DNA from: Psilocybe cubensis
Lineage: Eukaryota
Length of the DNA stretch: 64,000 nucleotides
Direction of reading: 5' to 3'
Assembly (NCBI GenBank): GCA_017499595.2
Contig: CM039008.1
Span: 496,001-560,000, forward strand
The notes beneath the pieces are model-generated. The model was given only the letters and a program-made list of their open reading frames with translations, was not told where the DNA came from and did not search any database. A program made the position numbers and the translations under genes. This document shows, one piece after another, positions 8,292 through 31,077 of this stretch. Numbering within the stretch: the first letter of the stretch is position 1; every line of letters begins with the position of its first letter.

Positions 8292-8868
8292 GTGTTGTTC
8301 TTGAAGGTTTTCGCGTCTATGCCTGAGCAAGGTCGATAAATACGCCGTCCTCCTCGTTGCTTATAGTGAAAAAGTTAGACACTCGTGAGTCATACGCACC
8401 ATTGAATTTACGGTCGTGTGGCAATGCGAAGGGATTGGCACCCTGGCGGATTGGTTTTCCCAAATGATTTGCTGCCTCAAATAGAAATGCACTGGTTTAC
8501 ATACATGAATTGACAGCGATAAGTATGTATCGGCAGTTGACTTACCCTTCCATTGCTTCGAATCCCAAATAGACGCTCATTTGCATCATTCAATCATCTG
8601 GGAAAGTTAGTTTGGAAGGACCGAGGTTCGGATACGTCTCTCATCAGCAATACCGGGGCCAAGTAGGTAATGATCCGTAGTGATACGTAATTCTGTAGTG
8701 CCCATAGTAACGGTCCCATTTGGGTAACACACACTGATGTACCTGTAGCTTGGTACCAACGTGACATGGTACTCTGTAGTGATCTGTATTGTAACGCGAG
8801 TGCTGTGTAGCGGCGTGTAGCATGCTTACCATGGTCCATACCCCTCTGTATACAACTGACATACAAAT

Positions 8869-8939
8869 TGTAGCATACTACCACAGATTTGTAGCATGCT
8901 ACCACAGATTTGTAGCATGCTACCACAGATTTGTAGCAC
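8869..8939. repeat. 21-bp subterminal tandem repeat (TGTAGCATGCTACCACAGATT, ~3.4 copies)
   Basis: Units start at 8869, 8890, 8911 and 8932. The two central units contain the 12-bp palindrome GTAGCATGCTAC. Confidence 0.9.
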
Positions 8940-9206
8940 ATCATAACACACTGCAAATAGGTACAAAGGCATATATAGTATCCACTTTCATTTGTATAGT
9001 GTTGTGTGGCTATTCCTGCAAGTGCCAATATCACACTGAAAACCGAACCATTTTTGACTAAAATGGGCAATTTTAAAAATAGATAATCTATGTTTGGATC
9101 GGACCAAACATGTTTCTATTAGTAGATGCATAACTATTAATACGTGACGATCTAAATATGGTATCTTCTAATCCACACCCGGCAGCTGCCCCGCTCATTC
9201 ACCCAA

Positions 9207-11948
9207 CTACCCTTCTGGACCGTAATCTAGTTCCTCCTGTGGGATAGAATGGAGAGTCATCCTATAAGGGTTGGGGGGGTTCTTCGTAGGCCTCATAATA
9301 GCACTGATTATGGAGATCTAAATGATGCAAAGAAAGAAATGAATAAAAAAAGATACACACCATCCTTCCTCAGCCACTTCCCTACATAAGCGAGCCAAGC
9401 GAGGACCTTGGTTCAAGGTATCCTTCTCTGCCTCTGCTGCAACCAACATGCAGGCATCATACCTCAGGGAGTACTCCTCTCCCTTGAATTCAATACCCGA
9501 ACATGGACCACCTCTTGCAGGGTCAATCCCATCCCTCCACTCCTCAAGACAGTTGTGGATCTACAGCAAAATGCTTGTTAGCAAGGCAGTGCCAATAGCA
9601 GGAGAGAAATCAGAACTACACAACTGGCCACAAGCGCAAATGCTTTGTGGGGAAGCGATGTCTTGAAGAAATCCGTCTTTGTCTCCAGACCTTTGATGGG
9701 GACTGCAACCCCTTTTGTAGGATGGTAGAAGAAGTCCAGACAGATCTTCTTCACAAAAGGATGTCCAAATGGGACATCGTGATACTGGAAACAAATCAAT
9801 GAGTGGTAAGCCAGGTAAAATGGACGGCGAACTCACTCGGGTTTTGGCAACACCCCGGTGGTATTTACCATTGAGTAGCCAATATGCTACCCTGTCCTTG
9901 ATGTATTCGATCTCCCCCATCTGATTTTCAAACATATTGGGGTTCGCGGCGATGACCTCCGACGGGACTTCGAGGCCATACGCATTTTTGACCAGGGGTC
10001 TGATCATCGTCTTCAGTCTTCCCCGGAAGGTTGACGCGTAGACAAATGCCTAATGAGAACAGACACGTTAGTACGATATCCTTAAAAGAACACGCTAAAA
10101 ATATACCGTTACGGCGGTATTCCTGTCTAGGAGCGTTTTTTTCTCTGCAAAGTTATGTAAACCAATTAACTAAAATCACAGAAGACAGAACTTACTATCA
10201 GGCAACACTTTATCCGTGTTCATTCTTTCAAACACGGTTACTGCCATCTTCACACATCCATCGGCGACTAATAAGTGATTTTCCCGAGTGGGAAAGGGGA
10301 CCTCCTCTACTACATACAGGCACATCAGTTTGCGTGCAATTTTGAGCACATCTTTCCAGTAACCAGTAAAGGATGCAACTGAATGCTTGGATACTTCCCT
10401 AGCAGAAGAAGTACTGGACTTCTTATGAGCGATGTGTGCCTCACCAAGCACCTCATCATCGTCAGATGCTTCGTTGTTCTCCCTTGTCAAACCTTGGGAT
10501 ACGGCTCCTTGCGAAACAGCCGCCTTGCGCAATGCCTCAGGGCGAGGTGGCTTGTTCGCCCGATTACGACGACGGTGTTCTTGAAGAACATCCTCTACTT
10601 CCACAACCTATATCAATAATACATTAGCTAGACATTAAATACAGCAGAGAAATGATTACATGGGGGGAAGGCTGGCGGAGCAATGCCCTTGCTCTCCTCT
10701 CCTCTTCATCATCGGAAACTTCATCAACCACTGTCAAACATAGGTGGTAAGCAAACACGACATAAAGGTGGAGTTAAACCAACGCTGGGCAGCAGGCTCT
10801 TCATCATCTTGACCCGCGTCGTCGTAACCTTCATCACCGTCGACATATTGGAGAGCTTCTTCATCCCCAATATTCTCTTCATCAATTCCTTGCATGCATT
10901 CGTCCCCTGATGCTTCCTCAGATCGCCTTTCACCGTCACTATCCCCCTCTTCCTCCTCCTCATCTTCCTCCTGCTCTATGCCTTCGTAATCTTGTTGCTC
11001 CTCCTCGTCTTGATGGCTGATGCTAGCCTCTTGGTGGGCGTTATAGGCTGCTGGATGCACTGGCTGTTGTACGGGGGCATGTTGTGTTACAGGATGCACT
11101 GGTTGTTGTACGGGGGCATCGTAGTATTGGACAGAATTCTCTGCCGCAGGGGCAGCGTAACGCTGAACAGGATTTGCTGCGTGTTGTACAGGGCGCGGGA
11201 CAGGATGTGCTGCATGTTGTACGGGGCGCGGGACAGGATGTGCTGGCTGTTGTACCGGAGCAGCGGGGCGCTGGATGGGGGCAGTGGGTCTTTGGACAGC
11301 ATGATCAAGCTCTGAGTGCTCCTGATTTCTCTGAGCTGCACGTTGGATCTGGACAGGAGGGGGGGCACCCTGAGATTGTCGTGGGCTTGGTTGGACTTGT
11401 TGGACATCCCAAGGAGCAACTGAAGGCGTTGGCCTTGGTTGCATTTGAATAGGGGGACCTACATGCGACACAACGGTAACCTAGACGTGCTTGGAAGATA
11501 GCAAATTTAAGATTAGAACAGTAGACTCACCCCATTGCGAGGTTTCTTCAAGGGAGGCGCCATCTCATTTTCAGGCATGGCGCTAGTATCCACATTGGCG
11601 GCCCTTGACTTCCTCTTCCCAGCCTTCTCGAAGTCAATAAAAATGATGTTAGATGTTTTCTCCTGCCGAGCATTTACTCCACCAAGACCACGGGTGCTTC
11701 GGATAGGACGGCCATTGGGGTCTTTTTAATAAGGAGTTCAGTGAATCTCAACAAAGAAAATGCTAGTACAGACCTGCTTCAGGAGCCTGAGGTGGCTCGT
11801 TTTCTGCCACGGAGCTCGGACCCTGTTCAACCTCTTGTCCTAGATGGATAAAACATTAAGTATGCGGATGTAATGAGGATATATAGATGATACCTTCAAC
11901 CGTGGCATTGACAACCGCCTTTTTCTTTTTGGATCCTTTAGGTGGCAT
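9207..11948 (-). CDS. DUF6532-domain protein with basic N-terminus, P/Q/H-rich repeats and an acidic tract
   Basis: Starts MPPKGSKKKK (ATG 11948). ORF 10734-11471 has PVQQPAHP-like repeats and an E/D tract. C-terminal exons read PFGHPFVKKICLDFFY...LPHKAFALVASC...EEW...FKGEEYSLRY, matching the DUF6532 pattern. Exon limits approximate. Confidence 0.7.
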
Positions 11949-12219
11949 ATTGGGCTGGTTTGACGGTTGTAATGCAGAAATAGAGACAAGGGGTGGTGAA
12001 TTATGTCAAGCTACGATCCGGAGGTATGCGAAATTAGCATCTTTTCAAAATTTAAGGCGACGGACATCAGTCAAAAATATATCGTGCCATATAGAAATTA
12101 CAGGTACTGAAACAGTACCCCTATCTACTACAATATATCACATATACATTATAGTCAGATTCCATGTCCTACTTAGAGTTAAGTAAAGTTACATCTCAGA
12201 GGGGAAAAGACTGCACCTA

Positions 12220-12575
12220 TCATGATCGCGGATTATCCTGAGGGTGCATTAGAATAGGTATTCCCCGACTAATGAGGGATACCCGTAGACGGGCGATTTC
12301 GAGCTGGGTTTCAAACAGAAGATCTTCATTGGATTTATATGCTCGCATAATGTCGTCCATATAACAACGTAGCTCTGCCTGAACTTCTAGACACCTCTGT
12401 TCAGTGAGTTGAAATTGGTCAAGAGCCTTTTTAACGGCCTCTATGCCTTGATTCTAGAGGAAGGTGGATTAAAACATGAAAATAGACCTAAAACGAAGAA
12501 CTCTGCCTCTTCGGGTATGCTAGGGAGGCGGCGACTTTGAGGTTGCGAAGCGTTGTTGCTATTGGAATGGTTCAT
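12220..12575 (-). CDS. Small two-exon hypothetical coiled-coil protein (~100 aa)
   Basis: MNHSNSNNASQPQSRRLPSIPEEAEFFVL joins in frame across a GT..AG intron to EAVKKALDQFQLTEQRCLEVQAELR...LEIARLR...DNPRS*. Confidence 0.5.
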
Positions 12576-12742
12576 GATAAAGATAGGCAACAATTTGGTG
12601 TGGTGGTGGTGGCTTAAGTTCAAGACGATCAACACATTACGAACCATTAGCACTGTTGATTGCCGAAATACACTTAAATAGAATGACATAAAACCCGTAT
12701 ATGTCTACAAGTCCGTGTTCGAGATACAAGTAATGCTGCACC

Positions 12743-15102
12743 CTACATATTTACAACTTTGACACCACGGGACGGGGGGAAGATTTGAATCAAAGATGTT
12801 GTCGGAAAAGTTGGGAATGTATCACCGCGTTTCATACGAGTAACGGGATATTTATGTACAACGCAAATATCCTTGTCTATTGATCGTATCCTGAATATAA
12901 TCCCCATTGAATCGCCCTCAAGCGGTGTAACGAAGTCGTCCTTTTTTACAGGATGAATTGGAAACAACACTGATTTCGGTAATGTCAGTGTACGTCCCAG
13001 TAATGCTAGGTGGGCAGTATCGTCGGTAAGGCTGAGAAGTTCCATCGCCACTTGATGGTCGCCCTTGGATTTGTCTACGACTTTTAATCGTAATCCTTTC
13101 AGCTTATCGTATTTCGTATCTAGCCAGTGAGCGACGGTTGAGGGTAGTTCTGCGATTTCCACCGCCGAGTGTACAGGTATTGCTGAATACGGATTCCATG
13201 CAGGAGACAGAAAACTTGCTACTGTGGACGGCATTGGAGTTGCTCCACCAGAAGGCCCGGGGTCTTGAGCGGAATTTATATGTTCTCGGTTGCTTGAAAC
13301 AATGTCAGTAAGCACCTGACAGTCAACGAATCAAGTGAAACCACATACTGTATAATTAAATGTGATATTTTAATACGTTCCACCCTCTGGTTACGAGCTT
13401 CCAGCTCAACGTCTGCAAAGCCGTCGGGGGTAGTGCTTTTAACGATGCCATAGTACCCCTTGAATGTATTATTCCCGACAACGATGACACTCAAACCTAT
13501 ATAGACGTCGTTGTGGTCTCTTTCTCCAAGCTTTGACGAATGACGCTTTCGCGGGCGAAGAGTAGCATGGGCAGGGGGGACGTAGAATATGACTGTGTGG
13601 ATGGGCACAATGACCTGAAAAATGTGTTGAACACTACTGAGACAAAGAGAATGACAGTTCACCTACTTCGCGTTCGTGCTCTGGGGCGATAATACAAACA
13701 GATCTTCCATCAAAGTCTGACACCCATCCATGGAGATCTTTGTGATCCCCTTCAACGACTTCAACACTATCGCCTATCTGGAAAGCTGCACGTAGATCGT
13801 GTAGTGCAACTGCTTGTGTTATACCTTGGGAGGGGATGTGCACTTCCACCTCAGCGTCAGAAACACTCTTGACCGTTCCAAAAAGACCTAAGTATTCTCC
13901 ACCAATAATTTTGACTCGATCATATCGTTTCAGTCGAGTCATGGAGATGGCTTTCGAGGCTTGCGCTAAGGTCTCCGTCGTTACAAATGGACACTCGCGA
14001 AATTGCTCCAACTCGGACGATGTTGGGAGGACATTGGAAAGATATTTGAGATCGATGGCGTCGAAATCCGTGATAATAAATCCATCCTGGAATATCCTGT
14101 CGAGGTGCGATTTCTTGATGTTGTCCGGAGGTCTGGGGATAAGAACAACACTTTTCCGACCCTGGAATGTGAACACAAGGCCGGTAGCATTTGCGTAGGT
14201 CGTCCAAGCCTTACGCTTTCCAGCAACCTTGACCCACGATTGGTCTTCAGGGCGTGAGGGTGGGGGATGAGATAGGATCTCCATACATCTCTCCGAGGAT
14301 AGCCTAACTAAATGTGTCGGATTAAGCTCTCTAACGAGGCAGGCTAACGTATGCGCATGTTGCATTGATGGCGCCTCGACGTAGATTCTCCCAGGAATTG
14401 AGGATTGAGCGAAGACAGACCGGGCAAGGATGATGGGAAATGTAGGGTTCGTTGACATCTGCATAATTTTGAAAGCGACGGCCTCTTCGCGTCCAACCTA
14501 TCACTCGTAAGGTGATCAATAAATGCTGACTGAAGACTTATATTATTTTTGCGTACCTTGCAACCTATTTCATACATGATATCAGTCGCGGAAGGCATAT
14601 AATTATTATCACCAAGTCCTCCTGGTTGGGGATTGCCATATTTCTGTATAAGTTCTCGTGAACTAGATGGCTCTATATCATTGTCAGGACAAATTTTCAT
14701 GCGTGAAGGCAGAAGCATGGGCAACAAATCGCTCCATTCATCAGCGTTATCTGTATTTTGCATGGCATGATATAGCCGAGAGTGTGCAACACGTTCCTCA
14801 TCCTCAGAGAATTCATCGTTATCATTCACTGTATGTCAGAACCCATTAGCATCAGTACATATTGAGCAGAATATATGTAAATTATTGGAACATACGTAGT
14901 TGGCCCCCTTCATAATCAAGCTCTTCCGAACTTTCATCATCATCGGAAACCGCTGCTTCAATGTCTATGAAGGGATTAATGTCCTGATTTTTTGAGATCA
15001 TAATTAAATTTCCCTGAAGTTAGTGATTAGATGGAGGGTTGGATTAGTACACACTGTGCGGTTGCCTAGGCTGTCAAGTCGTCTGCGTTTATAACTAGAC
15101 AT
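12743..15102 (-). CDS. Spt5/NusG-like transcription elongation factor paralog (acidic N-terminus, NGN, several KOW motifs)
   Basis: Begins MSSYKRRRLD, then NPFIDIEAAVSDDDE (Spt5 N-terminal motif). NGN-like EIGCK...SVFAQSSIPGRIYVEA. KOW motifs YDRVKIIGGEYLGLFGTV, IGDSVEVVEGDHKDLHGWV and IGLSVIVVGNNTFKGYYGIVK...VELEA. A short GATP/SPAWNP remnant of the C-terminal repeat region. Confidence 0.8.
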
Positions 15103-15242
15103 TGTGGGTCTTAAAGACTGTTAATCGATGTTCATCTCACTTAATTTATCATCTTAACTTGTGATAATTTATTTTTAGATACTACACAACCTATTACTAT
15201 GATAAGACGCTATGATGAACGGAAAGAGAAAACATATGGTGA

Positions 15243-15443
15243 GAAACACGCTATTTCCGGAGCGATTCTTTAGGGTAGGTTTCCCGTCCTGAAGTCACGA
15301 GTTGGTTAAAAAAACGCCCCCTTACATCAGCCGCATCACCGTCACGGTGATGCGGCTGATGTAAGGGGGCGTTTTTTTAACCAACTCGTGACTTCAGGAC
15401 GGGAAACCTACCCTAAAGAATCGCTCCGGAAATAGCGTGTTTC
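15243..15443. repeat. Perfect 201-bp palindrome (100-bp arms, 1-nt spacer at 15343), with imperfect extension to 15207-15479
   Basis: 15243-15342 is the exact reverse complement of 15344-15443, checked base by base. Outer arms ACGCTATGATGAACGGAAAGAGAAAACA and ACGCTATGACGAACGGAAAGAAAAACA are diverged. Confidence 0.97.
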
Positions 15444-15768
15444 CAACTTGATTGTTTTTCTTTCCGTTCGTCATAGCGTAGTACCCCTCCCCATAGATTT
15501 AACATACATTCTAATAAAATAGACATAGACAATACTCTAGACACTCTATAATAGTTTTCGTTCAGTTAAAATTCATCTAGTTGAAAATTTGAGACACCAG
15601 AAAAAAACACACAAAAAAAAGTAAGTACCCAAAGAAATAGAATGCAGGGTGAGACGTTGAAGTTTTGTAGTGCAAGCCCAGAAGATTTCCCCCGTTGCCC
15701 GACTCCAAGCTGAAGAAATTCTGGCGTTTCCCTTCGAAACGCAGGTCGTTCGTCAGACTCTGGAAAAC

Positions 15769-18700
15769 ATGTTGCCAGAGTCGCACCCACTCCGCGTAGG
15801 TCTTAATTGGATTGCCATTTATGGTACTAATATCAAGTTTCTGTAGAGGATGGTGGATTTCCTCTGACGATATGAGGACTTCACCTTTTTGAATTACGAT
15901 GTTTCATCATCGAGCATGCGAGCGGCCATCAAGTATAGGCAAAGCTTGGCTGCCCTTCAGAACAGCATCGTAGAGACACCCTGCGTAACCTCGGCTACAT
16001 GGGAGCAGGCGGGTAGCTTATTTGCAGCATACCGTCTACTCGATCTCGTAGCGTTGTGGCCAGCAGCCTTTGGACCATCGTTGCCGGTAACCGTGCCCCT
16101 GAATGAAATACAGGCCAGCACAGGAACTAAGGAAATATTTTCACGGTTCAAGGTATGCGATCATGAAGTCACTCAATGTTAATTCTTAATTTTCAAACAA
16201 TTATTGTAGCTTGTAGATGACTTGAAGGACTGGCCGGCAATGCTCTGCTCTGCCAGGAAGCGCATCCTCAGAGCCGACTCTAAGTCGCACAGAAACATCA
16301 ACACCCCTTCTATCAGTGACACGCCGTCATCCGCTTTCACCCAGGGCGGGCCCTCGGAATCAACGCTATTACTCTGTCTGGCGCGTAACCACTTCAAGGG
16401 TGTTGTGGGGAAAATAATCGGGAATGTGTACTGCGCCTCGCTACACTACCAAATCTTGTCAGGAATGCGCGGTATGAAGGACGATGAACACGTTCTACCA
16501 GACATTCCAACGGACACGGCTACTCTTGCAAATCTCTAGTAAGTTTTCTTTCCTCTATTCATTGATACAATCTGCTCAACATACCCTAGTGCAAGCGGCC
16601 ATCCTGATGCTGCGTTGTTCCTCTCAGAGGTCACGCCATCTCATTTAAAAATTCCTCTGCATGTCGCCCTTTTCATATCCCCCATCCTTCTTTTTGTGAA
16701 TAAATCTTGGTATTCTAAGAAATGTGACCGGGAGCAGCTGCTTAAAGTAGGTGTATCCACATCCTCCCAGTTTAACTTGGATTAACGCACTCCTTTAGGC
16801 CTCAAAAGCGCTCGGTAATTGTCGCCCCCGTGTTCTGCGTGAAGTGGAGATGGAAATTTGGAAAATCATTGCAGCGCAAAATTGCGACATCCAGTCAGCC
16901 TTATATAAACTTGTTATCTCAGACTGCTGGATGGAATGCGAGCGGGTAATTGCACAAGATCCCGCGTTTCACTTTTTCATATGTGTGTTCTACGTACTGT
17001 AACAAAATAACAATTTAAACTAATAATTGGCCAGCGTCAACGAGCAGCGCCGAGGTTACAGCAAATTCTAACCTAGCAAGGCGCAGCACTGAACCACACG
17101 GTAAGTTATAAGCAAAGTCTGCGTCAATTACATGATTTAAATCCGTTTAAAACAGCTCAACTTCAGACCGTTTCCCATCATGGTGAAAAAACCACCTGTG
17201 AAGGGTCCGACGCAGACGCGGAGGGTGACGATGATCACGAAGTGGACACGACAGAAATGGTCAGCATGGGTCAACGGGAGAACGGGGACAATACGGTCCC
17301 TACCTCAAATATACAGCCTCCGGAAGACACGTCTTCAGTGGCTGGCAAGGATGTCAGCATGGGTCAACAGGAGAACGGGGACAATACGGTCCCTACCTCA
17401 GATATACAGCCTCCGGAAGACACATCTTCGGTGGCTGGCAAGGATGTGCCCACGGACGAGCAACCTGGTTTGCCGCGGAGTGATGATATTGGATCTGGTC
17501 TACTTCAGACTGAGAATACTGGGCCCTCATCTGCAGGGGATTGTGAGATGAACGTCGATCCGGAGCAAGCTGATGTCGACCATCAAATGGAGGATGGTCC
17601 ACATACCAATGGTCCAGAAAATTTGGGAGATGGCGGGGCTGGACAAGGAGCTGAAGGGTCTTCTGACGAGGCAAATCGTATGTCGGAAGTTCACGAGGGC
17701 GAAAAGCAGGGGCAAGACGGAGAACGACCCGACGAGGAGAACCGAATGTCAGAAGATGGTGAGGAGGAAAGGCCAGACGACAGTTCGTCGGACAATGAGA
17801 CCGAGAAGCAGGGGCAAGGGGATGTTCCACCAGTCCAGGAGGACAGAATGTCGGTCGATGGAGAGGGGGTAGGCCCAGAGCAAAACAATGATTCCTCAGA
17901 CATGGAGAGGAATACATTGGAAGACAGCCAAGGCGAAAAGGAGGGGGAGAACGCACCTCCTGCTCCTCTTATTTTGAGGATTCCTCCTGTTTCCCAGATA
18001 AACAGGAGCAAAAACACCACGGCTGACTCCTCTCAGAAAGGGAAAGGGAAGGGCCGGCAGGGCCTTTCCAAGCGGCCTCCCAAACGCAAGCCGACGCAGG
18101 CTACCGACACATTTGATTCGGACGACGACCTGTGTATTGATGTCGATCTGTACGACAGCAACACCACCCTTGATGTCGTCAGCACTCCGGAGAAGGTGTA
18201 TGGCACCAAAGTTTGGTCCACCTACAACGGTCGTGGCCAACTTAAAAGTTTCTGCGTTGTTGCCCATGTAAGTCATTCTCGATATTGATTTTTTCGTCAT
18301 TTATTTATTCTCCAAACAAGAGTCAAGCCGACGTGGATCGTGTTGAAAGGGTTCTGGAATTGGTCGAGAGTGACTACGTCGATGGAGTTCCATTGCACAT
18401 AGCACGTCCCGAAGAATCATGTTTTGCGGTATTCGACCGCAGCACCACGAAATCCATGTATCTGATGGAGTCTTTCTCTGAAAGGAACGTCGTCCTTATG
18501 TCTCCTTCTCAAGAGGAGTCTATTTCAACTTGCTCCGACGAGTTCTACAGCCAGGTACGTCGCCATATGGGTGATATGACGAGCACCAGGTCAATCCAAG
18601 GTGTGTTTCCTCTTCGATGTTTTGATTTTTCTTTCTGCGTCTCATGCTAATGGCCGTAACAGATATGTCGACCATGTCGTCTAACCCCATCGAGAGGATT

Positions 18701-20332
18701 AAGCGTGGGTCCCTCTCTCAGGTCATGGAAGCAGCGAGGATGAAAGGCAAAAGAGGAAAGATCCTCAATGCCCTCGACATCCCTTTACCTCATGCAGGCG
18801 CTCACTCTTTTGACTTGAGTACTGAGGCGGCTGCTCTTCGGGCTACATCTGGTAGCTGGAAGTATAGTACCCCCGTCCCATTTGGTGATATGTCATGGGG
18901 ACTCGTAGCTACAGAGGGGGCATTTTCAGATATCCATATCGATGCCAATGGTTTCTGTTCCTTCATCCAACCTCTTCATGGACTGAAGCTGTGGATTATC
19001 ATGTATCCCAGACGGTTGGATGTTGACCTTTCTTCTGACCGCCGTGTATTTCTGGGAGACAAGCTGGATTACGGGGAAACGCACCACCAAGACTGGATTT
19101 ACGAGGCGATTGTTCTCGATAACCAGTCAGAACTGTATGTGATTTTTGAATGTCCTACCCATTTGATTATATTGACGCTACTTTGAAAAACAGCTTCATG
19201 AGACCGAATACTCTACATATGGCGTATTCTATCTCCTCAGTGGTTTGCCGTGGCGGACATTTTTACTCCTCCACTTCCTTCGAAGAAACCCTGACAGGAA
19301 TCATTCACTGTTTTACCGCTGGATACAGGGCAACGAATACGAATCATTCAACGTCCCGATTTTTCCTGCAGCAAACCATACATTGGTTCTACAAGGTTTT
19401 GGTTGAAGGTGACAGCGACCCAGAAGGTATGAGGTTTTTTACCGTTTCCTACAAGATATCTGATTCTTTTCTTCTATTTTCTCTCAGATTTTTATGAAAT
19501 GTACCATGTCCCATTCTACAGTACGCAGTCCGGATACTCGAGCTTGATAGCTCTGTGCGTGTGCATGATCTTGGCAAATGCGCTCGACTACGAGACCTAT
19601 CGAAATCCCGATCAGATGTTCTCCACCAAGACTTCGGCACAGTTAGACGCATGGATGCGGTGGGATACCAACAGCCTGAGCGACGAAGAGCGCAAGGCGT
19701 GCATCTTTGCCCGTGGCGAAGCCTTGGCTATTCTAGAGTGGCTATGTCATCGCACGAAGTCCATCCACTACATGATTGAGACGGACAAAAACAAGGATGC
19801 ACAAAATATCATGGCGACAGAAAAGTTCCATGAAATGATACTTTGCCGCTATGCCCGTATGATTCTAGCCTACGACGCAGAAGCCAAACATAACAACATT
19901 GGTGGTGCCCCTTGCTGTACCGACACCAGTTTGCTTTTTGTCCAGCTTCAGGGCGTCTGCAGCGGAGAATTGAACAAGGTTATATGTCGCAGTATCGACC
20001 AGCTTCCTCGTTCCTCGGTCCCAAAGATGCTCAAGTTACCCGTAATCACTCTCATTGACTGTGATGCCTGTGCGGATTCCTCAACGCAATTGAGTAGGTG
20101 GACCAGTGTCTGCCTTTGGATATTCACTAACCACGTCACAAACTAGGAACTCCCAAGGAGATTCTGGAACTTGGTACGAGTGTGAGGGATAAACTGTATC
20201 TGGATGGCATGAAAGTCAAGCTGGAGAGCACAAATCCGAGTACGTGTGTTCGATTATGCCTTTACGTCGCAAATGCTTATCTCTTCATCAGAATCAGAGT
20301 CTGTTCCGCCTTCTAAACGACGGCGACTTTGA
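15769..20332 (+). CDS. Large multi-exon JmjC-like Fe(II)/2-oxoglutarate dioxygenase; 5' end uncertain, possibly disrupted
   Basis: WGLVATEGAFSDIHIDANG...GLKLW (HxD plus Lys) in ORF 18644-19186, and FMRPNTLHMAY...GGHFY (distal His) in ORF 19150-19497. Upstream acidic low-complexity exon 17242-18270. Ends PPSKRRRL*. In-frame TGA at 15865 in the predicted second exon. The N-terminal exons could be a separate gene. Confidence 0.7.
17260..17447 (+). repeat. 93-bp (31-aa) coding tandem duplication
   Basis: VSMGQxENGDNTVPTSxIQPPEDTSSVAGKD twice, starting at 17260 and 17353. Confidence 0.95.
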
Positions 20333-22652
20333 TATTGTACAACACATTGACACACATCTTGATTTACATACATGCCATGTTTTATTTAGTACTGAAAGGC
20401 GTGTATGTCCTGTAACATAATGACGATTGTTTTATTATCTGTAGTTGTGTGCTGCTCGTATCGCCAGACCAATACGCAAATTCTCGCTGGGATGAAAGCT
20501 TCTGGCTTTACTGTAACTGCTGTGCGTTTGAATTTATCATCAAGGTCAATGAAATCAACTAACTTACGTTTGTTGATGCTTCTTCCACCCACTTCAAAAA
20601 ATGTGTTAGTGTCTTTGTTCTGGTGCGTATATACAGTAAAGCTCTTCCGAAGCCCTCCTTGGATTGTACTACGGATTGGTTGAATACTAACCCATGTGAA
20701 ATTTGTTTGTATTAACGGAGACATAATCAGATAACATTTATAGACCCACTGCACGTTACTGAACATTACATTATCAGTTTTTTTTTCGTATCTTCGCTTT
20801 TGTATGAGTCGTTGTTTCAACATGGGAAAGGGCAAGGGCAAGAGAACTCAGGAAATCTGTGTGCGTTGTCCTCGATGCAACAAGCCATTCGCTAAGCATG
20901 CAGATGTCCAAAATCACATCAATCAACCAAAATCGGCATGTCGTTTTCAATATGAGAACGTTATGCATTTTCAGTCCAATCGTTCAAGCTCTACATCTAG
21001 ATCAGCAACCCCCGTATCTCGAGACCCTTCTCCCGAAATTGGTAATTTTATGGAAGTGGACTATATCGACAATTTTCTTGGCGCGTCATCAGAGATGGAA
21101 GATGACCCACCCCCCAAGGCATCAAAATACAACTATCCGTACGTGAAGGAGGATTATAACGGGGCTGGAAGAGCATTTGGAACAGGCCTTACATTCATGG
21201 ATCAGCTCAAACAGGATCAATTCGAACCCCAGCGGGCGGAAAATTTGTACTATCCTTTTGCCTCGAAAGATGAATGGGAGCTCTCCCTGTTCCTACTTCG
21301 CTCTGACATGAGCGTAGGAATGCTGAATGATTTTTTGAAACTTGAACTGGTAATTGAGCGTACATTCCCATCATTATTTATTTCAGCTGAGTCGATCCCG
21401 TATAGATAAAAAAACTCAACTTGTCCTACAAGTCGGCAAAAGATCTACGCAACCGGGCAGAGATCCTTCCCTCTGGTCCGCAGTGGAAGAGTCAAACGAT
21501 CATACCAGAAATACCAAGCAAAAATCAGCTAACGCTTTTTTACCGCGATGGATTGGAATGTATCAAGGCGCTTCTCATCAGTCCCTTGCTCCAAGATAGC
21601 ATGCACTTTAGCCCATTCAAGCTCTTCGACAAGTGCAACGAGATGATGCGGGTATACACTGAGTGGTTTAGCGGTGACATTGCGCATTTTATGCAGGTTA
21701 GTAGCAATGCCTTTGTCCAAGTTTGACGACAGTATAACAAGGTTCCCAAGGACCAGCTCCCAAAAGGAGCAACACTTGTACCTCCTATTATTTCCACGGA
21801 TAAAACCAACATTTCCAACATGACCGGAGGCCGTGTCGCCTACCCTGGCCTTATCAGCATTGCCAACATAATGATGAACGTTAGAAACAAATCGTCAAAT
21901 CATTTATTCCTTCTTTTTGTTCTTCTTCCCATACCAAAGTTTCTTCATCGCTCCAAAGCTGTGAATGGGATGATGGCAGCACGGCTATATCACCAGTGCA
22001 TGGACATTGCTCTAGAATCGGTCAAACAAACTGCGAGGGTGGGAACCACCATGGCAGATGCATTGGGGAATAATCGTTTCTGCTTTACACCGCTTGCTGC
22101 CCTTATCGTTGATACTCCAGAATCTGCTCTGGCGGCTTGCGTCGCAGGATCCACATCCTCTGTGACGTTGGCACAATACGAGACGTTTGGGGATTCCTTT
22201 CGCCACCCTTCCCGAACTGCAGATCATACAATCAACACCATCATGGCCATCAACAATGTTAAGCCCCCTAATCATCTCGAACCATATCTAAAAGAAAGCA
22301 AAAAGCACCGTCTCAATGGGGTTCACCTACCGTTTTGGAGAGATTGGCCCTTGTCTGATCCTTCTGCATTCCTTACACCTGAACCCCTTCATCACTGGCA
22401 CAAGATGTTCTGGGATCATGATGCAAAATGGTGCATTGCTGCAGTCGGAGGTTCCGAATTGGATTTTCGATTTTCGATTTTACAGCACCGCACTGGTTTC
22501 CGACACTTCAAGGAAGGGATTTCTTCCTTGAAACAAGTGACCGGTAGGGAACATCGGGACGTTCAGCGATACATTGTTGCTCTCATTGCAGACACAGTCA
22601 GTACACCCTTTATCTTAGCCATCCGGTCTCTGATGGACTTTCGGTATCTCGC

Positions 22653-23102
22653 TGTCAGGGCAACACTATAATCAGTGTGACAAGGCCACCAACAAAGATT
22701 AAGCAAGAGAGAGAAAGAGAGAGCAGAGGGAGAGTAAGAGAGCAAAGAGAGAATAAGAGAGTGAGAGAGATTCAATGGTTCTAAGAGATCACACCAATGA
22801 TAGTGGATATCCTAAGAGATTGAAGCTGAAGCTACAGCTACCTACAAGTCCAGTATTTATACTCTACAGCTATTCTAGAATATTCCCTACATTACATCAT
22901 AAAGGAAGGTTAAAGAATAAAAGTGACATCATATAGAAAAAGGATGAGTAAGACTAGGAATCATATAGAATTTACTAGAAAGAAGTGGAGCAAGAAGGCT
23001 GTGATGAAAGAAATAAACTATCTAATCAGATAATTGATAAGATAATGAAAGAATAAGATAATTCTGTGAAGATAAAGAGGGGAAACTGGAGAAACCCTGA
23101 CA
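22653..23102 (-). repeat. 3' LTR
   Basis: Identical by eye to 28615-29064. Confidence 0.97.
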
Positions 23103-26100
23103 TCACCCCCTCTCTAAGGCACATTTTCCACAATGTGCACATGGATGGGTTAGTTTAGAGGGTTTAAGAAGAGGAGGAGGTTCAGTAAAGTTAATAATAG
23201 GAGTGAAAGAAAGTCTATCAAAGGTCACAGCAGAAATCCTTCTAGGTGCTGAAGGATGTTTGGCATGGAAGTCCTTGATAGCCTTAGAAGCATTTTTCAA
23301 ATGCTCTGCAGGCTCCCAAGTGCATTCTTCATTAGGATAGTTCTTCCACTTGACCAAATATTGAAGTTTGTTTCTAAAAAGTCTGCTGTCCTTGATAAAT
23401 TCAACTTCCCACTCAGGATTTTCTCCTTGAATGACAGGAGGTGGTCTAGAAGGAGGCTTTCTTCCTACAATATCTGGGTGATAAGGTAGAAGTTTAACCA
23501 CATTGAACACTGGATGGATTTTCATGGTAGATGGCAGCTTAAGCTCATAGGCATTAGGGCTAATAACTTTGGTAATTTTGTAAGGCCCATATCTTTTATC
23601 ATCCAATTTCTTGGAGGGCCTATCAGTTTTGAGGTCCTTGCCATCTAACCATACCAAATCCCCAACTTTGTACTGAGTTGGAGTACCTCTGTGTCTATTA
23701 TAGAATTTAGCCATATCATCAGCAGCTTTTCTAAGTGCAGACTCTGCTTCTTTCCTGGCTTCTTCCATATTTTTCACAAAGGTATCCACAGTGTCCATTT
23801 TACTATCTCTAAGGGGTTCAGTGCCCATTCTGGGATGTCTGCCATTATTGAGCATGAATGGTGTCTGCCTGGTTGAAGCCTGAACTCTATTGTTATAAGA
23901 GAATTCAGCTAGAGCTAACCATTCAACCCAATCATCTTGTCTATGGTTTATAAAGAGTCTAAGATACTGCTCAATTTCTTGGTTAACTCTTTCAGTCTGA
24001 CCATCAGTTTGGGGATGGTAGGCTGTAGATGAGGCTGTCTGGATACCAAGTATTGAGTTGAGTTCTTTCATAAACCTTGAGACAAACTGTGGACCTCTAT
24101 CACACAGAATTTTAATGGGTAAGCCATGGTGTTTCCAGACATAATCTCTGTATAGTCTGGCTGTCCCTTCAGAAGTGACTTCATCTGTAGTAGGGATAAT
24201 GTGGATCATTTTACTAAGTCTATCCACAACCACCATAATGGCATTATACCCTTGACATTCTGGTAACCCCATAATAAAGTCCACAGAGATGCATTGCCAG
24301 ACATCAGAGGGAATCTCAGTAGGAATTAAAAGGCCAAGAGGTTTGGCTGGAAAGGTTTTGGTTCTGTTGCATCTATCACAACCTCTGGTATAGGCTGCAA
24401 TAAAATGTGACATTCCTGGCCACCAATAATTCCTAGAGACTAGCTCAATTGTCTTCCATTTCCCTGGATGTCCAGCAATGAAGGCATCATGGTGCAGTTC
24501 CACAATCTTTCTTCTAAGATCTTTGTCTTTGGGAACATACACCTTCCCCCTGTAGAGAATAAGGCCTTGTTCTTCTGACCATTCCTGTCCTTCAATCTTC
24601 TTGGTAGAAGATTTCTTGAGCTCCTGAACTGCCTTGACCACCTTTTCATCCATCTCCTTAGCTTCTCTAATCTTCTTAAGAAGATCATTTTCTGCACCAG
24701 TAATGGTAGCATGACCCTGCTTGAGAGCCTGGATTTTAAAGTAGGAAGGTTTGAGGAGAACTACATTTTGGTTATCATTTTCTCCCTTTTTATGATCTGG
24801 TCTCCTAGACAAAGCATCTGGCTTAAGAGATCTTTTACCAGGCCTATGATGAAGAGTAAAATCAAATCTGGACAGGAAGAGTGACCATCTGGCTTGCCTT
24901 CTGCTGAGCTTTTGGGCAACCATAAAGTACTCTAAGTTTTTGTGGTCTGTCCAAATCTCAAAGGAATGTTGGGTTCCTTCAAGATAATGTCTCCATTCAT
25001 CTAGTGCTCTGATAATAGCCAGCATCTCTTTGTCATGGATCTCATAATTCCTTTCTACTTCAGATAGACTCTTAGACATAAAGGCTACAGGATGCCATTT
25101 CCCATCTGATCCTTCCTGAGATAAAACAGCCCCAGTAGCATAATCTGAACTGTCTGCTTCAACTTTATATGGCTTGTTATCATCAGGGAAAATCAAGACA
25201 GGTGAAGAAGTGACTTTCTTCTTTAACTGGTCAAAGGCTTCCTGCTGTCTAAGACTCCATCTCCAGACTGTTCCTTTCTTTGTCAATTCATGAAGGGGCT
25301 TAGCAATGTCTGCAAAATCCTCTATGAACCTTCTATAAAAATTAACAAATCCCAAGAATGATTGGACATCCTTGACATTTTCAGGTTCAGGCCATTTAGA
25401 AACTCCCTCTACCTTGACAGGATCCATCTCAATCCTGCCTTGTGAAATGATTAGTCCAAGATATTCAATCTTTTCCTTTTCAAATTCACATTTCTCTGCT
25501 TTAAGGTAGAGTTTGTTCTGTTCTAGGATTTGCAGAACTTGCTTGACTACCTCTCTATGATGATCAAGAGTCTCAGTGAAAATTAAAATGTCATCCATGT
25601 AGACAATGACAACATTTCCATCAATGAGCTCAATAAAGATATCATTCATCATAGTTTGGAAGGTAGCAGGACTATTGGTTAAACCAAAGAACATGACCAA
25701 TGGTTCAAACAGCCCTCTATTGGTTCTAAAGGCTGCTTTCCATTCATCTCCCTTTTTGATTCTGACATTGTTAAATCCCCACCTAACATCAAGTTTGGTG
25801 AAGTATTTGGCTTTGCTGAGTTTGGTGATGATGTCAGAAATCAATGGAAGGGGGTAGGAGTTCTTGATGGTCATTTCATTCAGTTTCCTATAGTCCTGGA
25901 CAAGCCTAAGAGATCCATCCTTCTTCTTGACAAAGAATACAGGGGAGGCCATAGGTGACTTGGAGGGTCTAATCCTGCCAGACTTCAGATTTTCCTCTAA
26001 AAAGGCATCAAGTTCCTTTTGTTCATTGGGAGAAAGAGGATAAATCTTGGATCTGTAAGGTTCAGAACCAGGTTTCAGCTCAATAGCATGATCCCAAGGC

Positions 26101-26984
26101 TTTCTGTCTGGTAGCCTATCAAAAGATTCCTTTGAAAAAACACCTTTAAACTGATGATAGTGCTTAGGAACAGTTTCTTCAAAGGTTTTCTTAGGGGAAT
26201 CAGCTTGCTGATGAGACTCTTCTGCTAATCTTTGAGACATAGTAGAAGTAGCATTAATAGACTGCTTCTGAGGATGAAGGTATGAGATAAAAATTCTATC
26301 CTCAGGCTCAATCTCAGAATCAGAAGAATCTTCAATAGAATCATCTTCTTCTTCATCAAATTGAGGGAGTTTCCTCCTTTTGACTGCAGCTATTCTCTGC
26401 CTCTTTCTTCTGGCTCTTTTGGCTTCCATTTGGCAGTCAGAGGGACATCTAATAAACTGGACATCCCCTGTCTTCCAATCAACATCTGGATTATGGTGCC
26501 AAAGCCAAGTATGTCCAATGATAGCAGATTTGTCTCCCAAGTCACAAACAGCAAAGGTGGCCCTTTCTGTATGGTTCTTGTGTACCATAATTAAGTCTAC
26601 TTCCTCATGGATAGAGCCACTCTTGTTGAGAGTACCATCAACATTATAGACTGGAATGGCTCTAGGAAGTTTCCTTGTGTTGAGATTATGATACTTCACA
26701 AAACCAGAATGCAGAAAGAGGCCAGTAGCTCCAGAATCAAGTAAAGCATCAACAGATAACCTTTTCTCTGTGTCCATTGTCTTTAAGATGACAGACAAAT
26801 GGGTAGAGGTTTTAGGATTATGGTTGAGGATGTAGATCTTTTCAGGGAAGGTAGAAAGAGAGGAAGAAGAAGACATGATTTCTGCACCAGAATCTGAAGA
26901 CTGAGGATCAAGTCTGTCAATTTCATTTTCTAGTACATTAAATCTATTCCATTGGGACATGTCTTTCACCAATGGTGCTTCTAA
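23103..26984 (-). CDS. pol: Pol polyprotein: protease, RT, RNase H, integrase, chromodomain (reached by a -1 frameshift from gag)
   Basis: LLDSGA protease; YMDD RT; ADSSD...NYEIHDKEMLAI RNase H; HH-CC zinc finger, SVDFI, CDRG and GQTER integrase with GPY motif; chromodomain WEVEFI...YLVKWKNY...TWEP. Stop codon abuts the 3' LTR. Confidence 0.97.
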   Translation of the reverse strand, partial: LEAPLVKDMSQWNRFNVLENEIDRLDPQSSDSGAEIMSSSSSLSTFPEKIYILNHNPKTSTHLSVILKTMDTEKRLSVDALLDSGATGLFLHSGFVKYHNLNTRKLPRAIPVYNVDGTLNKSGSIHEEVDLIMVHKNHTERATFAVCDLGDKSAIIGHTWLWHHNPDVDWKTGDVQFIRCPSDCQMEAKRARRKRQRIAAVKRRKLPQFDEEEDDSIEDSSDSEIEPEDRIFISYLHPQKQSINATSTMSQRLAEESHQQADSPKKTFEETVPKHYHQFKGVFSKESFDRLPDRKPWDHAIELKPGSEPYRSKIYPLSPNEQKELDAFLEENLKSGRIRPSKSPMASPVFFVKKKDGSLRLVQDYRKLNEMTIKNSYPLPLISDIITKLSKAKYFTKLDVRWGFNNVRIKKGDEWKAAFRTNRGLFEPLVMFFGLTNSPATFQTMMNDIFIELIDGNVVIVYMDDILIFTETLDHHREVVKQVLQILEQNKLYLKAEKCEFEKEKIEYLGLIISQGRIEMDPVKVEGVSKWPEPENVKDVQSFLGFVNFYRRFIEDFADIAKPLHELTKKGTVWRWSLRQQEAFDQLKKKVTSSPVLIFPDDNKPYKVEADSSDYATGAVLSQEGSDGKWHPVAFMSKSLSEVERNYEIHDKEMLAIIRALDEWRHYLEGTQHSFEIWTDHKNLEYFMVAQKLSRRQARWSLFLSRFDFTLHHRPGKRSLKPDALSRRPDHKKGENDNQNVVLLKPSYFKIQALKQGHATITGAENDLLKKIREAKEMDEKVVKAVQELKKSSTKKIEGQEWSEEQGLILYRGKVYVPKDKDLRRKIVELHHDAFIAGHPGKWKTIELVSRNYWWPGMSHFIAAYTRGCDRCNRTKTFPAKPLGLLIPTEIPSDVWQCISVDFIMGLPECQGYNAIMVVVDRLSKMIHIIPTTDEVTSEGTARLYRDYVWKHHGLPIKILCDRGPQFVSRFMKELNSILGIQTASSTAYHPQTDGQTERVNQEIEQYLRLFINHRQDDWVEWLALAEFSYNNRVQASTRQTPFMLNNGRHPRMGTEPLRDSKMDTVDTFVKNMEEARKEAESALRKAADDMAKFYNRHRGTPTQYKVGDLVWLDGKDLKTDRPSKKLDDKRYGPYKITKVISPNAYELKLPSTMKIHPVFNVVKLLPYHPDIVGRKPPSRPPPVIQGENPEWEVEFIKDSRLFRNKLQYLVKWKNYPNEECTWEPAEHLKNASKAIKDFHAKHPSAPRRISAVTFDRLSFTPIINFTEPPPLLKPSKLTHPCAHCGKCALERG

Positions 26985-28108
26985 AAATTTTTCTTTTCCT
27001 CATCTTTCTGCTCCTTGCCTTCCAAGATTAATTTCCCAAAGTAGTCAGCCAGTTCTTCATGGGTCATAGCATTGATGTTAACTGATGACCTGCAGTTTAC
27101 AGCCTTATGACCAGGCTTTCTGCACTTGAAGCAAACAATTGGCCTAACTGACTTCCATCCAGAGTCAACCTCCATGGGAACTACATCTGGTTGCTTTGCC
27201 TGAGCACCAAAGGTCCTTGAGCTGCTGTTGGAAAAGACTGGAGGATTTGGAGTAGGCTTAGGAACAGCCTTGGGAGTTGGGGCTTTAAGGAAGGGAGAAG
27301 AAGAGGAGGAGGAAAGAGACTTGGTAAAGGCCTCACTCTGTCTCCACTGCCTATCTAGCCTAGTACTCCATTTAATCCATCCATCCAAGGTTTTGGGCAT
27401 GTCAGGAACATAGTAGACTGCATTCCTAAGATTTTCATTAAGCCCAGCCTTGAATTGGTCTACCAAAGCAGCATCATTATACCCAGTATCTGAGATCAGA
27501 GCCCTGAAGCTAGCAACATACTCATCAGCAGTCTGTCTGCCTTGCTTGAGCATGTGCATTTTATGCTTAGCTGTGTTGGAGGGGTCTGGATCTGCAAACA
27601 CTTCCCTAAATTCATAAACAAAGTCAGCCCAAAGACCTTCTTGGGACTGAGCATTGTCTATTACTTTAGTCTTCTCATATGCCCACTTCCCAGCAGTACC
27701 TCCTTTCATATGAGATAGAGCACAAATAACTTTCTGAAAGTCATCTGTAATCCCTTTCCCATAGAAATATAATTTAAGCTGACTGAGGAAGTTTTCTGCC
27801 TTCTCCATAGAACCATCAAATGGATCTGGAGGTGAGACTTTAATGGCAGAGTGTGAACAGGAAGGGGCAACATGAGGGGTAGGGAAAGAGTGAATATCTA
27901 GAGCAGCAGGTGGTGGTGGTGGTGGTGGTGGTGGTGGTGGTGGTGGTGATGGTGACTGACTGACTGGTTGCTGAGGGTGTGGTGGAGTGGATAATGACTG
28001 CTGCTGCTGTCTAAGAAAATTTAACTCTTGGGTAAGGAGCTGGACCTGATGCATGAGCTCTTCCACAGAAGGAGTGGTGGGAGGCAATTGGGAGGGGTCC
28101 ATGTCCAT
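26981..28108 (-). CDS. gag: Gag protein
   Basis: 375 aa with a poly-Pro tract, PDPFDG, LKQG...ADEYVASF capsid motif, VPMEVD and CFKCRKPGHKAVNC zinc knuckle. Confidence 0.95.
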   Translation of the reverse strand: MDMDPSQLPPTTPSVEELMHQVQLLTQELNFLRQQQQSLSTPPHPQQPVSQSPSPPPPPPPPPPPPPAALDIHSFPTPHVAPSCSHSAIKVSPPDPFDGSMEKAENFLSQLKLYFYGKGITDDFQKVICALSHMKGGTAGKWAYEKTKVIDNAQSQEGLWADFVYEFREVFADPDPSNTAKHKMHMLKQGRQTADEYVASFRALISDTGYNDAALVDQFKAGLNENLRNAVYYVPDMPKTLDGWIKWSTRLDRQWRQSEAFTKSLSSSSSSPFLKAPTPKAVPKPTPNPPVFSNSSSRTFGAQAKQPDVVPMEVDSGWKSVRPIVCFKCRKPGHKAVNCRSSVNINAMTHEELADYFGKLILEGKEQKDEEKKNF

Positions 28109-28601
28109 GGGTAGGGGTAGGTAGGCTCTCTGATGTGTGTGTGGGAGAAGCTATCTACTGAAAGTGCCCTTGAAACTATACTAAGTATTCTAAAAAAAAA
28201 TATCTATCTACTGGATACCCAGTTGTCACACCACTCAGGGCTCTAAACCTAGGATCACAGGGTTACTGGATATTTCCTAGACCACCAAAAACAGAACACT
28301 AGTAGGACTGTGTCTGCCCCAACAGTTGGTATCCCTATCTACTAAGTTCACACACAGCACACAACAGAGAGTAGGAAAGATGATGAGCCAAAGGTCTTGA
28401 GGAAAGGTCTTGAGGAAAGGTTTTGAGGAGGATGTTGAAGATTGGTGGAGATGTAGAGATTGGTAAGAAGATTGGTGAAGAGGTTGATGAAGAGGTTGGT
28501 GGATTGGAAGTGGAGGAAGAAGGTTGAGGTGATGGTGTTGAAGAGGTTGAAGAGGTGAAGAGTTTGGTGTTGAAAGAGAGATGGTGGAGTTGTCTTGAGA
28601 G

Positions 28602-28612
28602 AGCTTCAATCT
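28602..28612 (-). promoter_or_regulatory. Primer-binding site complementary to the element's own predicted transcript 5' end
   Basis: Minus-strand AGATTGAAGCT lies 2 nt after the 5' LTR. It is complementary to minus-strand AGCTTCAATCT at 28789-28779, which is 26 nt downstream of TATAAATA (28823-28816). Confidence 0.75.
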
Positions 28613-28614
28613 TC

Positions 28615-29064
28615 TGTCAGGGCAACACTATAATCAGTGTGACAAGGCCACCAACAAAGATTAAGCAAGAGAGAGAAAGAGAGAGCAGAGGGAGAGTAAG
28701 AGAGCAAAGAGAGAATAAGAGAGTGAGAGAGATTCAATGGTTCTAAGAGATCACACCAATGATAGTGGATATCCTAAGAGATTGAAGCTGAAGCTACAGC
28801 TACCTACAAGTCCAGTATTTATACTCTACAGCTATTCTAGAATATTCCCTACATTACATCATAAAGGAAGGTTAAAGAATAAAAGTGACATCATATAGAA
28901 AAAGGATGAGTAAGACTAGGAATCATATAGAATTTACTAGAAAGAAGTGGAGCAAGAAGGCTGTGATGAAAGAAATAAACTATCTAATCAGATAATTGAT
29001 AAGATAATGAAAGAATAAGATAATTCTGTGAAGATAAAGAGGGGAAACTGGAGAAACCCTGACA
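28615..29064 (-). repeat. 5' LTR
   Basis: 450 bp; TATA box at 28816-28823 on the minus strand. Confidence 0.97.
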
Positions 29065-30572: not shown

Positions 30573-31077
30573 TTGCCACTCAAATTATCACCCAACACGC
30601 CGGCCTCGTTGTACACAAAGACGACTCGGATCAATATCAACAGCCGCTTCTCACCAGTCCCGCTTTCTCACACTGTATCATCGTCACCTACTGCATATCC
30701 CTCCATCCATCTCATCTCTGCAGAATCAAGTCGTTCTCGCTCATCTTCCGCTCACCACCGCCCAAACTCCAAAGGATTCTTCCCAGAGTGCCTCTTCCTC
30801 TAAACAAAAATTCGCCTCCAGTCTTGTTGGTCCGTCCTGTCCTCAATTAGCGCCCATCTTGCCGGAGATACTCACTTTATTTTTTCAATTCCATTGCAGA
30901 TTAAGCTGTCAGCACCTTATCTGAGATCTGGCGCCCTCAAGACATTCCCTCCCTATTTCTACCCACTGAAGTCCTTTGAGGATTGAGGACATCTGGAAAC
31001 ATACTGCAGACAGCACTATGTTATCTCGAAGCCATTCGTCCCAAGGTTCCCAAAATTTGCAAGAGGAAAGCATTGGC
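30573..31077 (+). pseudogene. Degraded, internally deleted duplicate of the adjacent cyclin gene
   Basis: 30673-30952 matches 31109-31387, including the intron. 30969-31077 matches 31617-31726. TAA replaces CAA just after the splice acceptor. Confidence 0.8.

Follow-up and report, generated by a model that had tools for sequence, protein, structure and literature searches.

An 18-kb DNA transposon of the mushroom Psilocybe cubensis carries its own intact, though trimmed, gene for Spt5, a protein that universally assists RNA polymerase II (Pol II). The gene occupies positions 12743..15102 of the window (the whole 64,000-nt stretch analysed, positions 496,001 to 560,000 of contig CM039008.1), and it is an intact Spt5 paralogue of the NusG/Spt5 family, not the canonical orthologue. 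To our knowledge, Spt5/NusG is the sole transcription factor family present in all life. No description of a transposon-borne Spt5 was found in a search of the full-text literature that covered subscription papers only in small part. The transposon and its contents were assigned as follows.

8642..33317, plus strand: PlavakaB DNA transposon bounded by CATCA..TGATG and a 2-bp target duplication (CT in this copy); about 18.26 kb once the inserted retroelement is discounted
9170..11948, minus strand: cargo gene with weak DUF6532 matches (best E 7e-5, just below the Pfam cut-off); limits approximate
12743..15102, minus strand: Spt5-like gene, 694 aa (spliced reading frame, Pfam, PDB sequence matches, 14 copies)
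15207..15479, no strand: 273-bp palindrome (z -37.6) with perfect 100-bp arms at 15243-15443, separating the Spt5-like and JmjC-like genes, which are head-to-head
15642..20332, plus strand: JmjC-like cargo gene or genes, possibly more than one (H-x-D...H motif, Atlas lead); limits approximate
20804..30522, plus strand: Plavaka transposase (C2H2 finger, PF18759, DUF6830; Pfam), split here by a retroelement
22653..29064, minus strand: Ty3/gypsy chromodomain LTR retrotransposon within the transposase (identical LTRs of about 451 bp, 5-bp target duplication)
31286..32206, plus strand: cyclin-like cargo ORF (Cyclin_N E 0.003, below cut-off)

The boundaries of the element were set from the flanks of its copies, which share common ends at 8642 and 33317. 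When the genome was searched with the protein, 17 candidates were scored and 16 matches were obtained, namely 14 copies at 99-100%, a fragment at locus D (36%) and the host SPT5. The initial annotation had described the gene as transposon-borne, and it does indeed lie within an 18.3-kb element present in those 14 copies. Target duplications of 2 bp matched in 12/12 copies with both ends in one stretch (of the 14 copies in all), and the transposase matched PF18759 at E 1e-64. PlavakaB is defined by CATCA..TGATG termini and a 2-3-bp target duplication (PMC12730594); because the termini, the target duplications and the PF18759 transposase agree with this definition, the carrier was assigned to PlavakaB. 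In another natural copy of the element, the transposase is uninterrupted. In two DNA runs from one study the element is covered about 12-fold, starting at 8642, and one of these runs also contained the empty site; the insertion is therefore polymorphic and recent. An assembly artefact was ruled out by this depth in two runs, although their independence from the assembly is uncertain. The right flank of the element (33318-33500) was found again at three nearby sites of the same contig (C11:451472, 478007 and 494539), and the element therefore landed in locally repeated sequence. The gypsy chromovirus-type element at 22653-29064 looks intact, and its LTR or relatives of it occur in or around other Plavaka copies (C3, C7). 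Elsewhere in the window, positions 46-772 hold about seven imperfect direct repeats of about 41-77 nt, spaced 90-142 nt apart in a GC-rich stretch, and positions 56226-59533 (minus strand) hold long ORFs with weak zf-4CXXC_R1 matches.

The other cargo was also examined. In the JmjC-like gene, which is head-to-head with the Spt5-like gene, the H-x-D...H triad looks intact and spans an intron (19135-19193). Atlas placed the gene at 0.93 to a cluster that is 15% JmjC and at 0.91 to one that is 40% JmjC; no match supporting a JmjC identity was found in Pfam, in PDB sequences or by comparison with host JmjC. Its dN/dS was 0.52 (CI 0.36-0.75) against an 83%-identical Plavaka relative. The cyclin-like ORF is under purifying selection, with a dN/dS of 0.30 against an 84%-identical relative on C2; partial repeats at 30673-31399 accompany it. 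One might speculate that a cyclin adjoining an Spt5 with a conserved TP/SP site hints at a kinase link.

The model of the Spt5-like gene comprises six exons (15102-15055, 15013-14896, 14828-14557, 14497-13667, 13614-13349 and 13292-12743, minus strand) and five GT-AG introns of 41-67 nt each, the first of which (41 nt) is the least certain part of the model. The reading frame begins with an ATG at 15102 and ends with a TAG at 12745-12743, with no internal stop, so that start and stop codons fall exactly at both ends of the interval originally proposed. Pfam found, in order, Spt5-NGN (E 4e-5, above cut-off), KOW2_Spt5 (1e-13) and KOW5. Spt5 chains made up 14/16 matches in a PDB sequence search (best E 5e-10). 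Moreover, exon 4, modelled with AlphaFold from a 55-row alignment (pLDDT 88.9), matched, at E 9e-14, the Spt5 of Pol II complexes, and the best fold matches of all modelled exons were Spt5, with Tudor/Agenet readers at lower ranks. Pfam, PDB sequence and fold thus agree on the arrangement that marks the NusG/Spt5 family, an NGN followed by KOW domains, and bear out the earlier observation of Spt5 motifs in the expected order. An insensitive word-index homologue search with exon 4 returned none among longer proteins and one same-species copy among proteins of near length.

The domains of the protein were delimited as follows.

14557..15102, minus strand: exons 1-3, acidic N-terminus, conserved F-I-D-I-E-A motif and first NGN strand (alignment to host SPT5 and relatives)
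13667..14497, minus strand: exon 4, NGN (G182, Y185 and E187 conserved), KOW1 (deletion of about 38 aa, altered YxGD motif), KOW2 and KOW3 (Pfam, alignment, AlphaFold/fold match)
13349..13614, minus strand: exon 5, end of KOW3 joined nearly directly to KOW5, without KOWx-KOW4 or linker (Pfam, alignment)
13190..13240, minus strand: single CTR-like module TP...SPAWNP (sequence, 11-row alignment, repeat count)
12770..13130, minus strand: KOW6-KOW7 tandem (model and fold match); limits approximate

The host possesses a canonical SPT5 of 1136 aa at a separate locus (G000:C13:951-955 kb). Both this host protein and the transposon-borne one have 99%-identical named counterparts recorded for Psilocybe cubensis. 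The possibility that the transposon-borne gene is the only SPT5 of the genome was thereby ruled out, and its status as a paralogue upheld. The strong divergence noted initially is evident from an identity of about 25% to the host protein, whereas most canonical SPT5s of Agaricomycetes reach 67-89% over the host NGN-KOW3 exon. The protein retains the acidic N-terminus, NGN, KOW1-3, KOW5 and KOW6-7, and it lacks KOWx-KOW4, the linker and most of the C-terminal repeat region (CTR), so that the KOWx-KOW4 and multi-repeat CTR of canonical SPT5 are not found in it. It is therefore shorter than canonical Spt5, as first described (694 versus 1136 aa), although much of the shortening comes from the loss of KOWx-KOW4 and the linker and not from the CTR alone. 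The initial annotation had credited the protein with almost no C-terminal repeat; most of the CTR is indeed lost, but one CTR-like unit is still present, and within it W and P are invariant in 11/11 aligned rows and TP is found in 10/11. The C-terminal exon was modelled as a KOW6-KOW7 tandem from an 11-row alignment (pLDDT 69 overall, <50 in the linker), and its top fold match was human 5ohq (TM-score 0.75 on the target). Plant KTF1/SPT5L has a long WG/GW Argonaute-binding tail. A long WG/GW-rich tail was looked for in the Spt5-like protein and is absent, the C-terminus consisting of one short repeat and KOW6-7.

The NGN G/Y/E residues are common to the Plavaka-borne protein (family A), the host protein and 94-98% of relatives; E187 is presumably an Spt4-contact residue. 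One Spt4 gene was found in the genome, of which three short exons are available. In KOW1 of family A, the deletion of about 38 aa is not present in the closest relative, and the positions G241, G249 and D250, conserved in 81-100% of relatives, are altered; family A is more eroded in KOW1 than its kin. All five introns have a host counterpart of the same phase in the corresponding region, and two of them, at the start of NGN and at the end of KOW3, are in exact alignment with it; the four host introns missing from the Spt5-like gene sit in or beside deleted parts. Because of these matching introns, we conclude that the gene was captured as DNA; a retrocopy origin is ruled out by five introns in host phases.

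The wider family was surveyed with a search profile built from three transposon-borne copies: 1635 clusters matched at E<=0.001 and 626 at 1e-10, totals that include canonical Spt5s. Thirty matches were looked up, and these came from Psilocybe, Panaeolus, Flammula, Pholiota and Dendrothele, with one canonical-like Coelomomyces protein and the rest metagenomic; such proteins are labelled in databases as SPT5 or NGN-domain proteins. Among the 150 matches listed, 23 non-canonical proteins of at least 550 aa were taken as long relatives. A KOWx-4 profile matched 0/23 of these and did not match the family A protein, whereas it matched 4/5 canonical controls. Units of the W-D/N-P type numbered 1-2 in 20/23 of the long relatives among the matches listed; across 108 canonical proteins the median was 4.

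Within the P. cubensis genome, at least 35 Spt5-like loci of several sequence families were found. When the flanks of seven locus types were inspected, A lay in Plavaka, B after a Helitron RepHel, and C/H, D, E and F by an EnSpm Transposase_21. In 6/7 locus types, a transposase lies no more than about 10 kb from the Spt5-like gene, and three superfamilies (Plavaka, Helitron and EnSpm) are represented; at locus G, no transposase was found among the 15 ORFs scanned. The Spt5-like gene and the transposase belong to one repeated unit in A, B, E, F and H, and in B, E, F and H two copies each share a 15-17-kb unit with both genes. Locus D (L055:8379-8753 and L056:1-1188) is a truncated remnant that runs from KOW2 onward without an NGN, is closest to family A, and adjoins a Gti1/Pac2 fragment and an EnSpm transposase. 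In family C/H, an ORF with a TET/JBP-like H-x-D...H motif, seen by eye, is divergent from the Spt5-like gene (L053:6430-6885 and L111:6184-6639, both minus strand). Between C and H this ORF shows a dN of 0 and a dS of 0.03; its identity was not confirmed in Pfam or PDB.

In a 34-row IQ-TREE analysis (a subset of a 131-row FastTree), the diverged proteins formed one clade (100/99) beside a canonical Agaricomycete clade (100/99); because the branches are long, this monophyly may partly reflect attraction. The family A gene, present in 14 copies next to a separate host gene and outside the canonical clade at 100/99, thus lacks the single-copy, canonical-clade character of SPT5 proper. A recent capture from Psilocybe SPT5 was rejected, since nesting with Psilocybe/Galerina SPT5 gave a p-AU of 0.011, in a test for which the group was chosen after tree inspection and the branches are long. 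Family A paired with the metagenomic protein P0105, and its identity to that sister lineage is about 33%. Relatives of P0105 at 82-94% are encoded at 11 metagenome loci, and in L119, L120 and L127 a probable CMCT-type transposase lies downstream of the Spt5-like gene. CMCT-like motifs were recognised by eye in this neighbour, for which Atlas pointed to DUF6830/DUF4218 (0.91). It is called a transposase only with probability because it gave no transposase match in Pfam and only a weak match (E 0.011) to the family C transposase.

Selection was assessed by a counting method with transition weighting and bootstrap bounds, in which pairs are not independent. The expectation that copies of the gene evolve under selection held for the diverged sister and cousin lineages, which are under purifying selection, but not for the 14 young family A copies, which drift neutrally. 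Premature stops occur in 3/14 of the young copies, and 11/14 are open. Among the variants in the left 14 kb of these copies, C>T at CpG accounts for 168/267 sites, with C>T at 13% of CpG sites versus 0.7-2.3% elsewhere (about 6-20-fold); this bias suggests that the element is methylated and a target of silencing. Because neutral drift is expected for any gene newly inserted, it is no test of function in the young copies. For the sister lineage, 7/11 metagenome loci were used (one duplicate and three partial loci were left out), and all seven NGN-KOW3 exons are open. This exon gave a dN/dS of 0.32-0.39 in 15/15 pairs with dS >=0.19 (upper bounds <=0.63), and the closest pair gave 0.70, with a CI that includes 1. 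Values for C versus H were 0.40 and 0.29, and E versus G gave 0.16, with 0.59 for the second half. Exon 6 of the sister lineage is under weaker constraint (0.63, CI 0.39-1.01). Transposases from the same elements, used as controls, gave 0.28-0.59; the Spt5-like family is therefore under a constraint similar to that on its adjoining transposases. Since the host SPT5 is separate and the diverged copies are constrained, neither a sole SPT5 nor neutrally evolving copies were found at the level of the family.

The adjacent palindrome reported initially is real, with the perfect arms listed above, and its centre is deleted in 5/14 copies. It was rejected as a separate MITE, given that 26/27 palindrome matches are confined to the 14 element copies; a lone 76-bp, 90%-identical piece of the arm lies outside them (G000:C11:190183-190258). 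A strong hairpin about 340-370 nt upstream of the N-terminal motif was found in A and C/H, that is, in 2/6 lineages scanned and with differing sequences, against a background in which 1/150 windows scored >=12. Scans of B, E/G, F, five loci of the sister lineage and the host gene gave no such hairpin. The suggestion that the protein is recruited at the palindrome is therefore not supported, the hairpin being absent from the closest sister lineage. In both A and C/H, the hairpin-bearing Spt5-like gene is head-to-head with a dioxygenase-like gene. In EnSpm C/H, the same hairpin of about 45-59 bp stands before the Spt5-like gene and the transposase (L053:9197-9239, L054:8375-8421, L111:8959-9002 and L112:8050-8108); both arms have changed in concert between C and H, and the loops differ. 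The palindrome thus resembles a feature of the promoter region that certain elements have, more than a conserved site at which the Spt5 paralogue would be loaded.

Distinct roles have been assigned to the modules of Spt5: the NGN/KOW1 DNA clamp acts in elongation, the KOWx-4/KOW5 RNA clamp with the linker acts in pausing (the KOWx-4 role was worked out in metazoans and need not hold in fungi), and the CTR acts in PAF1C recruitment and termination control (PMC9467590; 10.1101/2024.07.25.605161 agrees on these roles). Because the family keeps the DNA clamp and drops most of the RNA clamp and CTR, we infer a substitute Spt5 that would favour read-through. The carriage of related copies by several unrelated kinds of transposon, together with their retention under selection, suggests that the elements supply a tool for their own transcription. 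More specifically, the gene may encode an element-supplied Pol II elongation factor that lacks the pausing clamp and aids transcription through silenced repeats, a reading to which we give an even chance. In such a scheme, an ancestral intron-containing fungal SPT5 would have been captured as DNA, would have lost KOWx-KOW4 and every CTR unit but one, and would then have been handed among Plavaka, EnSpm and Helitron transposons. The protein would bind the Pol II clamp via its NGN, replacing host Spt5, and the NGN would probably pair with the host's single Spt4. The DNA-clamp core for elongation would be kept, and the RNA-clamp half and most phosphorylation sites, which serve pausing and termination, would be gone. 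Pol II with the element's Spt5 would cross long methylated element DNA more readily, and the transposase would be expressed; for targeting to its own element, the palindrome would offer no general answer. In favour of an element-supplied factor are the intact frame with its Spt5 domain order, the conserved NGN residues, the family-wide losses, the carriage by three superfamilies, the constraint on diverged copies and the CpG bias that marks the element as a target of silencing; TET/JBP cargo of fungal transposons and plasmid PrfaH serve as precedents. Counting against an element-supplied factor are locus G, with no transposase found, the erosion of KOW1 in family A, and a constraint that is moderate and regionally weak.

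The same losses could also describe a decoy that does not stimulate elongation but takes up the NGN site of Pol II, or sequesters Spt4 or a partner that binds the CTR, and so bars host Spt5-dependent pausing, termination or silencing factors from element transcripts. The family-wide absence of KOWx-4 and most of the CTR, the eroded KOW1 of family A and a single Spt4 gene to compete for are in keeping with such a competitor; yet the protein keeps six KOW modules and one CTR unit, beyond the needs of a plug, and general competition with an essential factor ought to carry a cost when 14 or more copies are present, so that we regard a decoy as unlikely. The gene might instead be a passenger, its family function past or never present, with the Plavaka of family A now carrying a decaying copy. 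KOW1 damage specific to family A, neutral-looking variation with stops in three of the 14 copies, and the truncated locus D without NGN would all fit. Neutral drift, however, would not allow a 694-aa, five-intron frame to stay open despite divergence to about 33% identity with its sister, and dN/dS is well below 1 in sister and cousin lineages; a passenger is accordingly judged distinctly improbable.

Two further roles may be considered. The protein could guide target choice by tethering the transpososome to marked chromatin or to Pol II, as KOW tandems that fold like Tudor/Agenet readers (in lower-ranked matches) and the usual proximity to a transposase might indicate; but the top fold matches are all Spt5, and the gene is common to enzymes as unrelated as DDE transposases and the Helitron RepHel, which leaves this role only a slim chance. 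Alternatively, it could act on the silencing or host-serving side, like plant KTF1/SPT5L or Paramecium Spt5m, by driving non-coding transcription that restrains the element or benefits the host. This is very unlikely in our estimation, given that the copies sit within mobile, recently active elements without a fixed host locus and that the protein lacks the long WG/GW-rich tail which we take as a KTF1 feature, even though known eukaryotic Spt5 paralogues do work in silencing or non-coding transcription (PMC5416832). We thus favour the element-supplied elongation factor.

The specialised eukaryotic Spt5 paralogues found in print are host genes, and a transposon-borne family would differ from them. 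With a large family kept by selection on transposons of three unrelated superfamilies, elongation control would join the means by which transposons evade silencing. Moreover, the family is a natural deletion series, with hundreds of diverged proteins that have NGN and KOW1-3, the long relatives among the matches listed being all without KOWx-4 and mostly with one CTR unit; the contributions of the RNA clamp and CTR to pausing, termination and heterochromatin in fungi thereby become directly testable.

Compared with canonical Spt5 (the large subunit of Spt4/5 or DSIF; PDB 5xon_W, 8qsz_Y and 5ohq), the paralogue shares the order acidic N-terminus, NGN, KOW1, 2, 3, 5 and 6-7, and it shares five introns in matching phase and region, two of them exactly aligned. 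It differs in being about 25% identical, in having no KOWx-4 or linker and one CTR unit, and in being multi-copy cargo of a separate, fast-evolving clade. Plant KTF1/SPT5L/RDM3 and Paramecium Spt5m are likewise diverged second Spt5s next to a housekeeping copy, and Spt5m is also described as lacking the classical C-terminal repeat domain (PMC5416832); KTF1 and Spt5m are, however, host genes for silencing or germline non-coding transcription, whereas the mushroom gene is carried by a transposon. Closest in distribution are the TET/JBP dioxygenase genes, a single gene family that has moved between Plavaka, EnSpm, Helitron and further basidiomycete DNA transposons, for which an anti-silencing role has been proposed and is unproven (Kojima 2025, PMC12730594, whose main text contains no occurrence of Spt5, KOW, JmjC or cyclin). 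That cargo is a DNA-modifying enzyme, and the Spt5-like cargo an elongation factor. The VANC proteins of Arabidopsis VANDAL elements are transposon-encoded helpers with a proposed role against host silencing (PMC5735166, PMC10398659) and in that sense resemble the role proposed here; they belong to another protein family with demonstrated sequence-specific action, whereas an anti-silencing action of the Spt5-like gene is a prediction. Alike in logic are the plasmid-encoded NusG paralogues PrfaH, which is needed for plasmid transfer (PMC11880322), and ActX (PMC7819879), in which a mobile element has its own NusG/Spt5-family factor. These are bacterial and recruited at an ops-like sequence, whereas the mushroom factor is eukaryotic and multi-KOW, has a predicted function, and showed no conserved recruitment site. 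By this analogy we tentatively propose, as a broader and somewhat improbable extension, that mushroom DNA transposons may have evolved a dedicated Spt5 that resists pausing and termination, and may pass it from one to another. Such an Spt5 would reprogramme host Pol II on these elements as one part of a kit that also comprises a JmjC-like demethylase and a cyclin, and it would be a eukaryotic counterpart of the RfaH-type antiterminators of plasmids.
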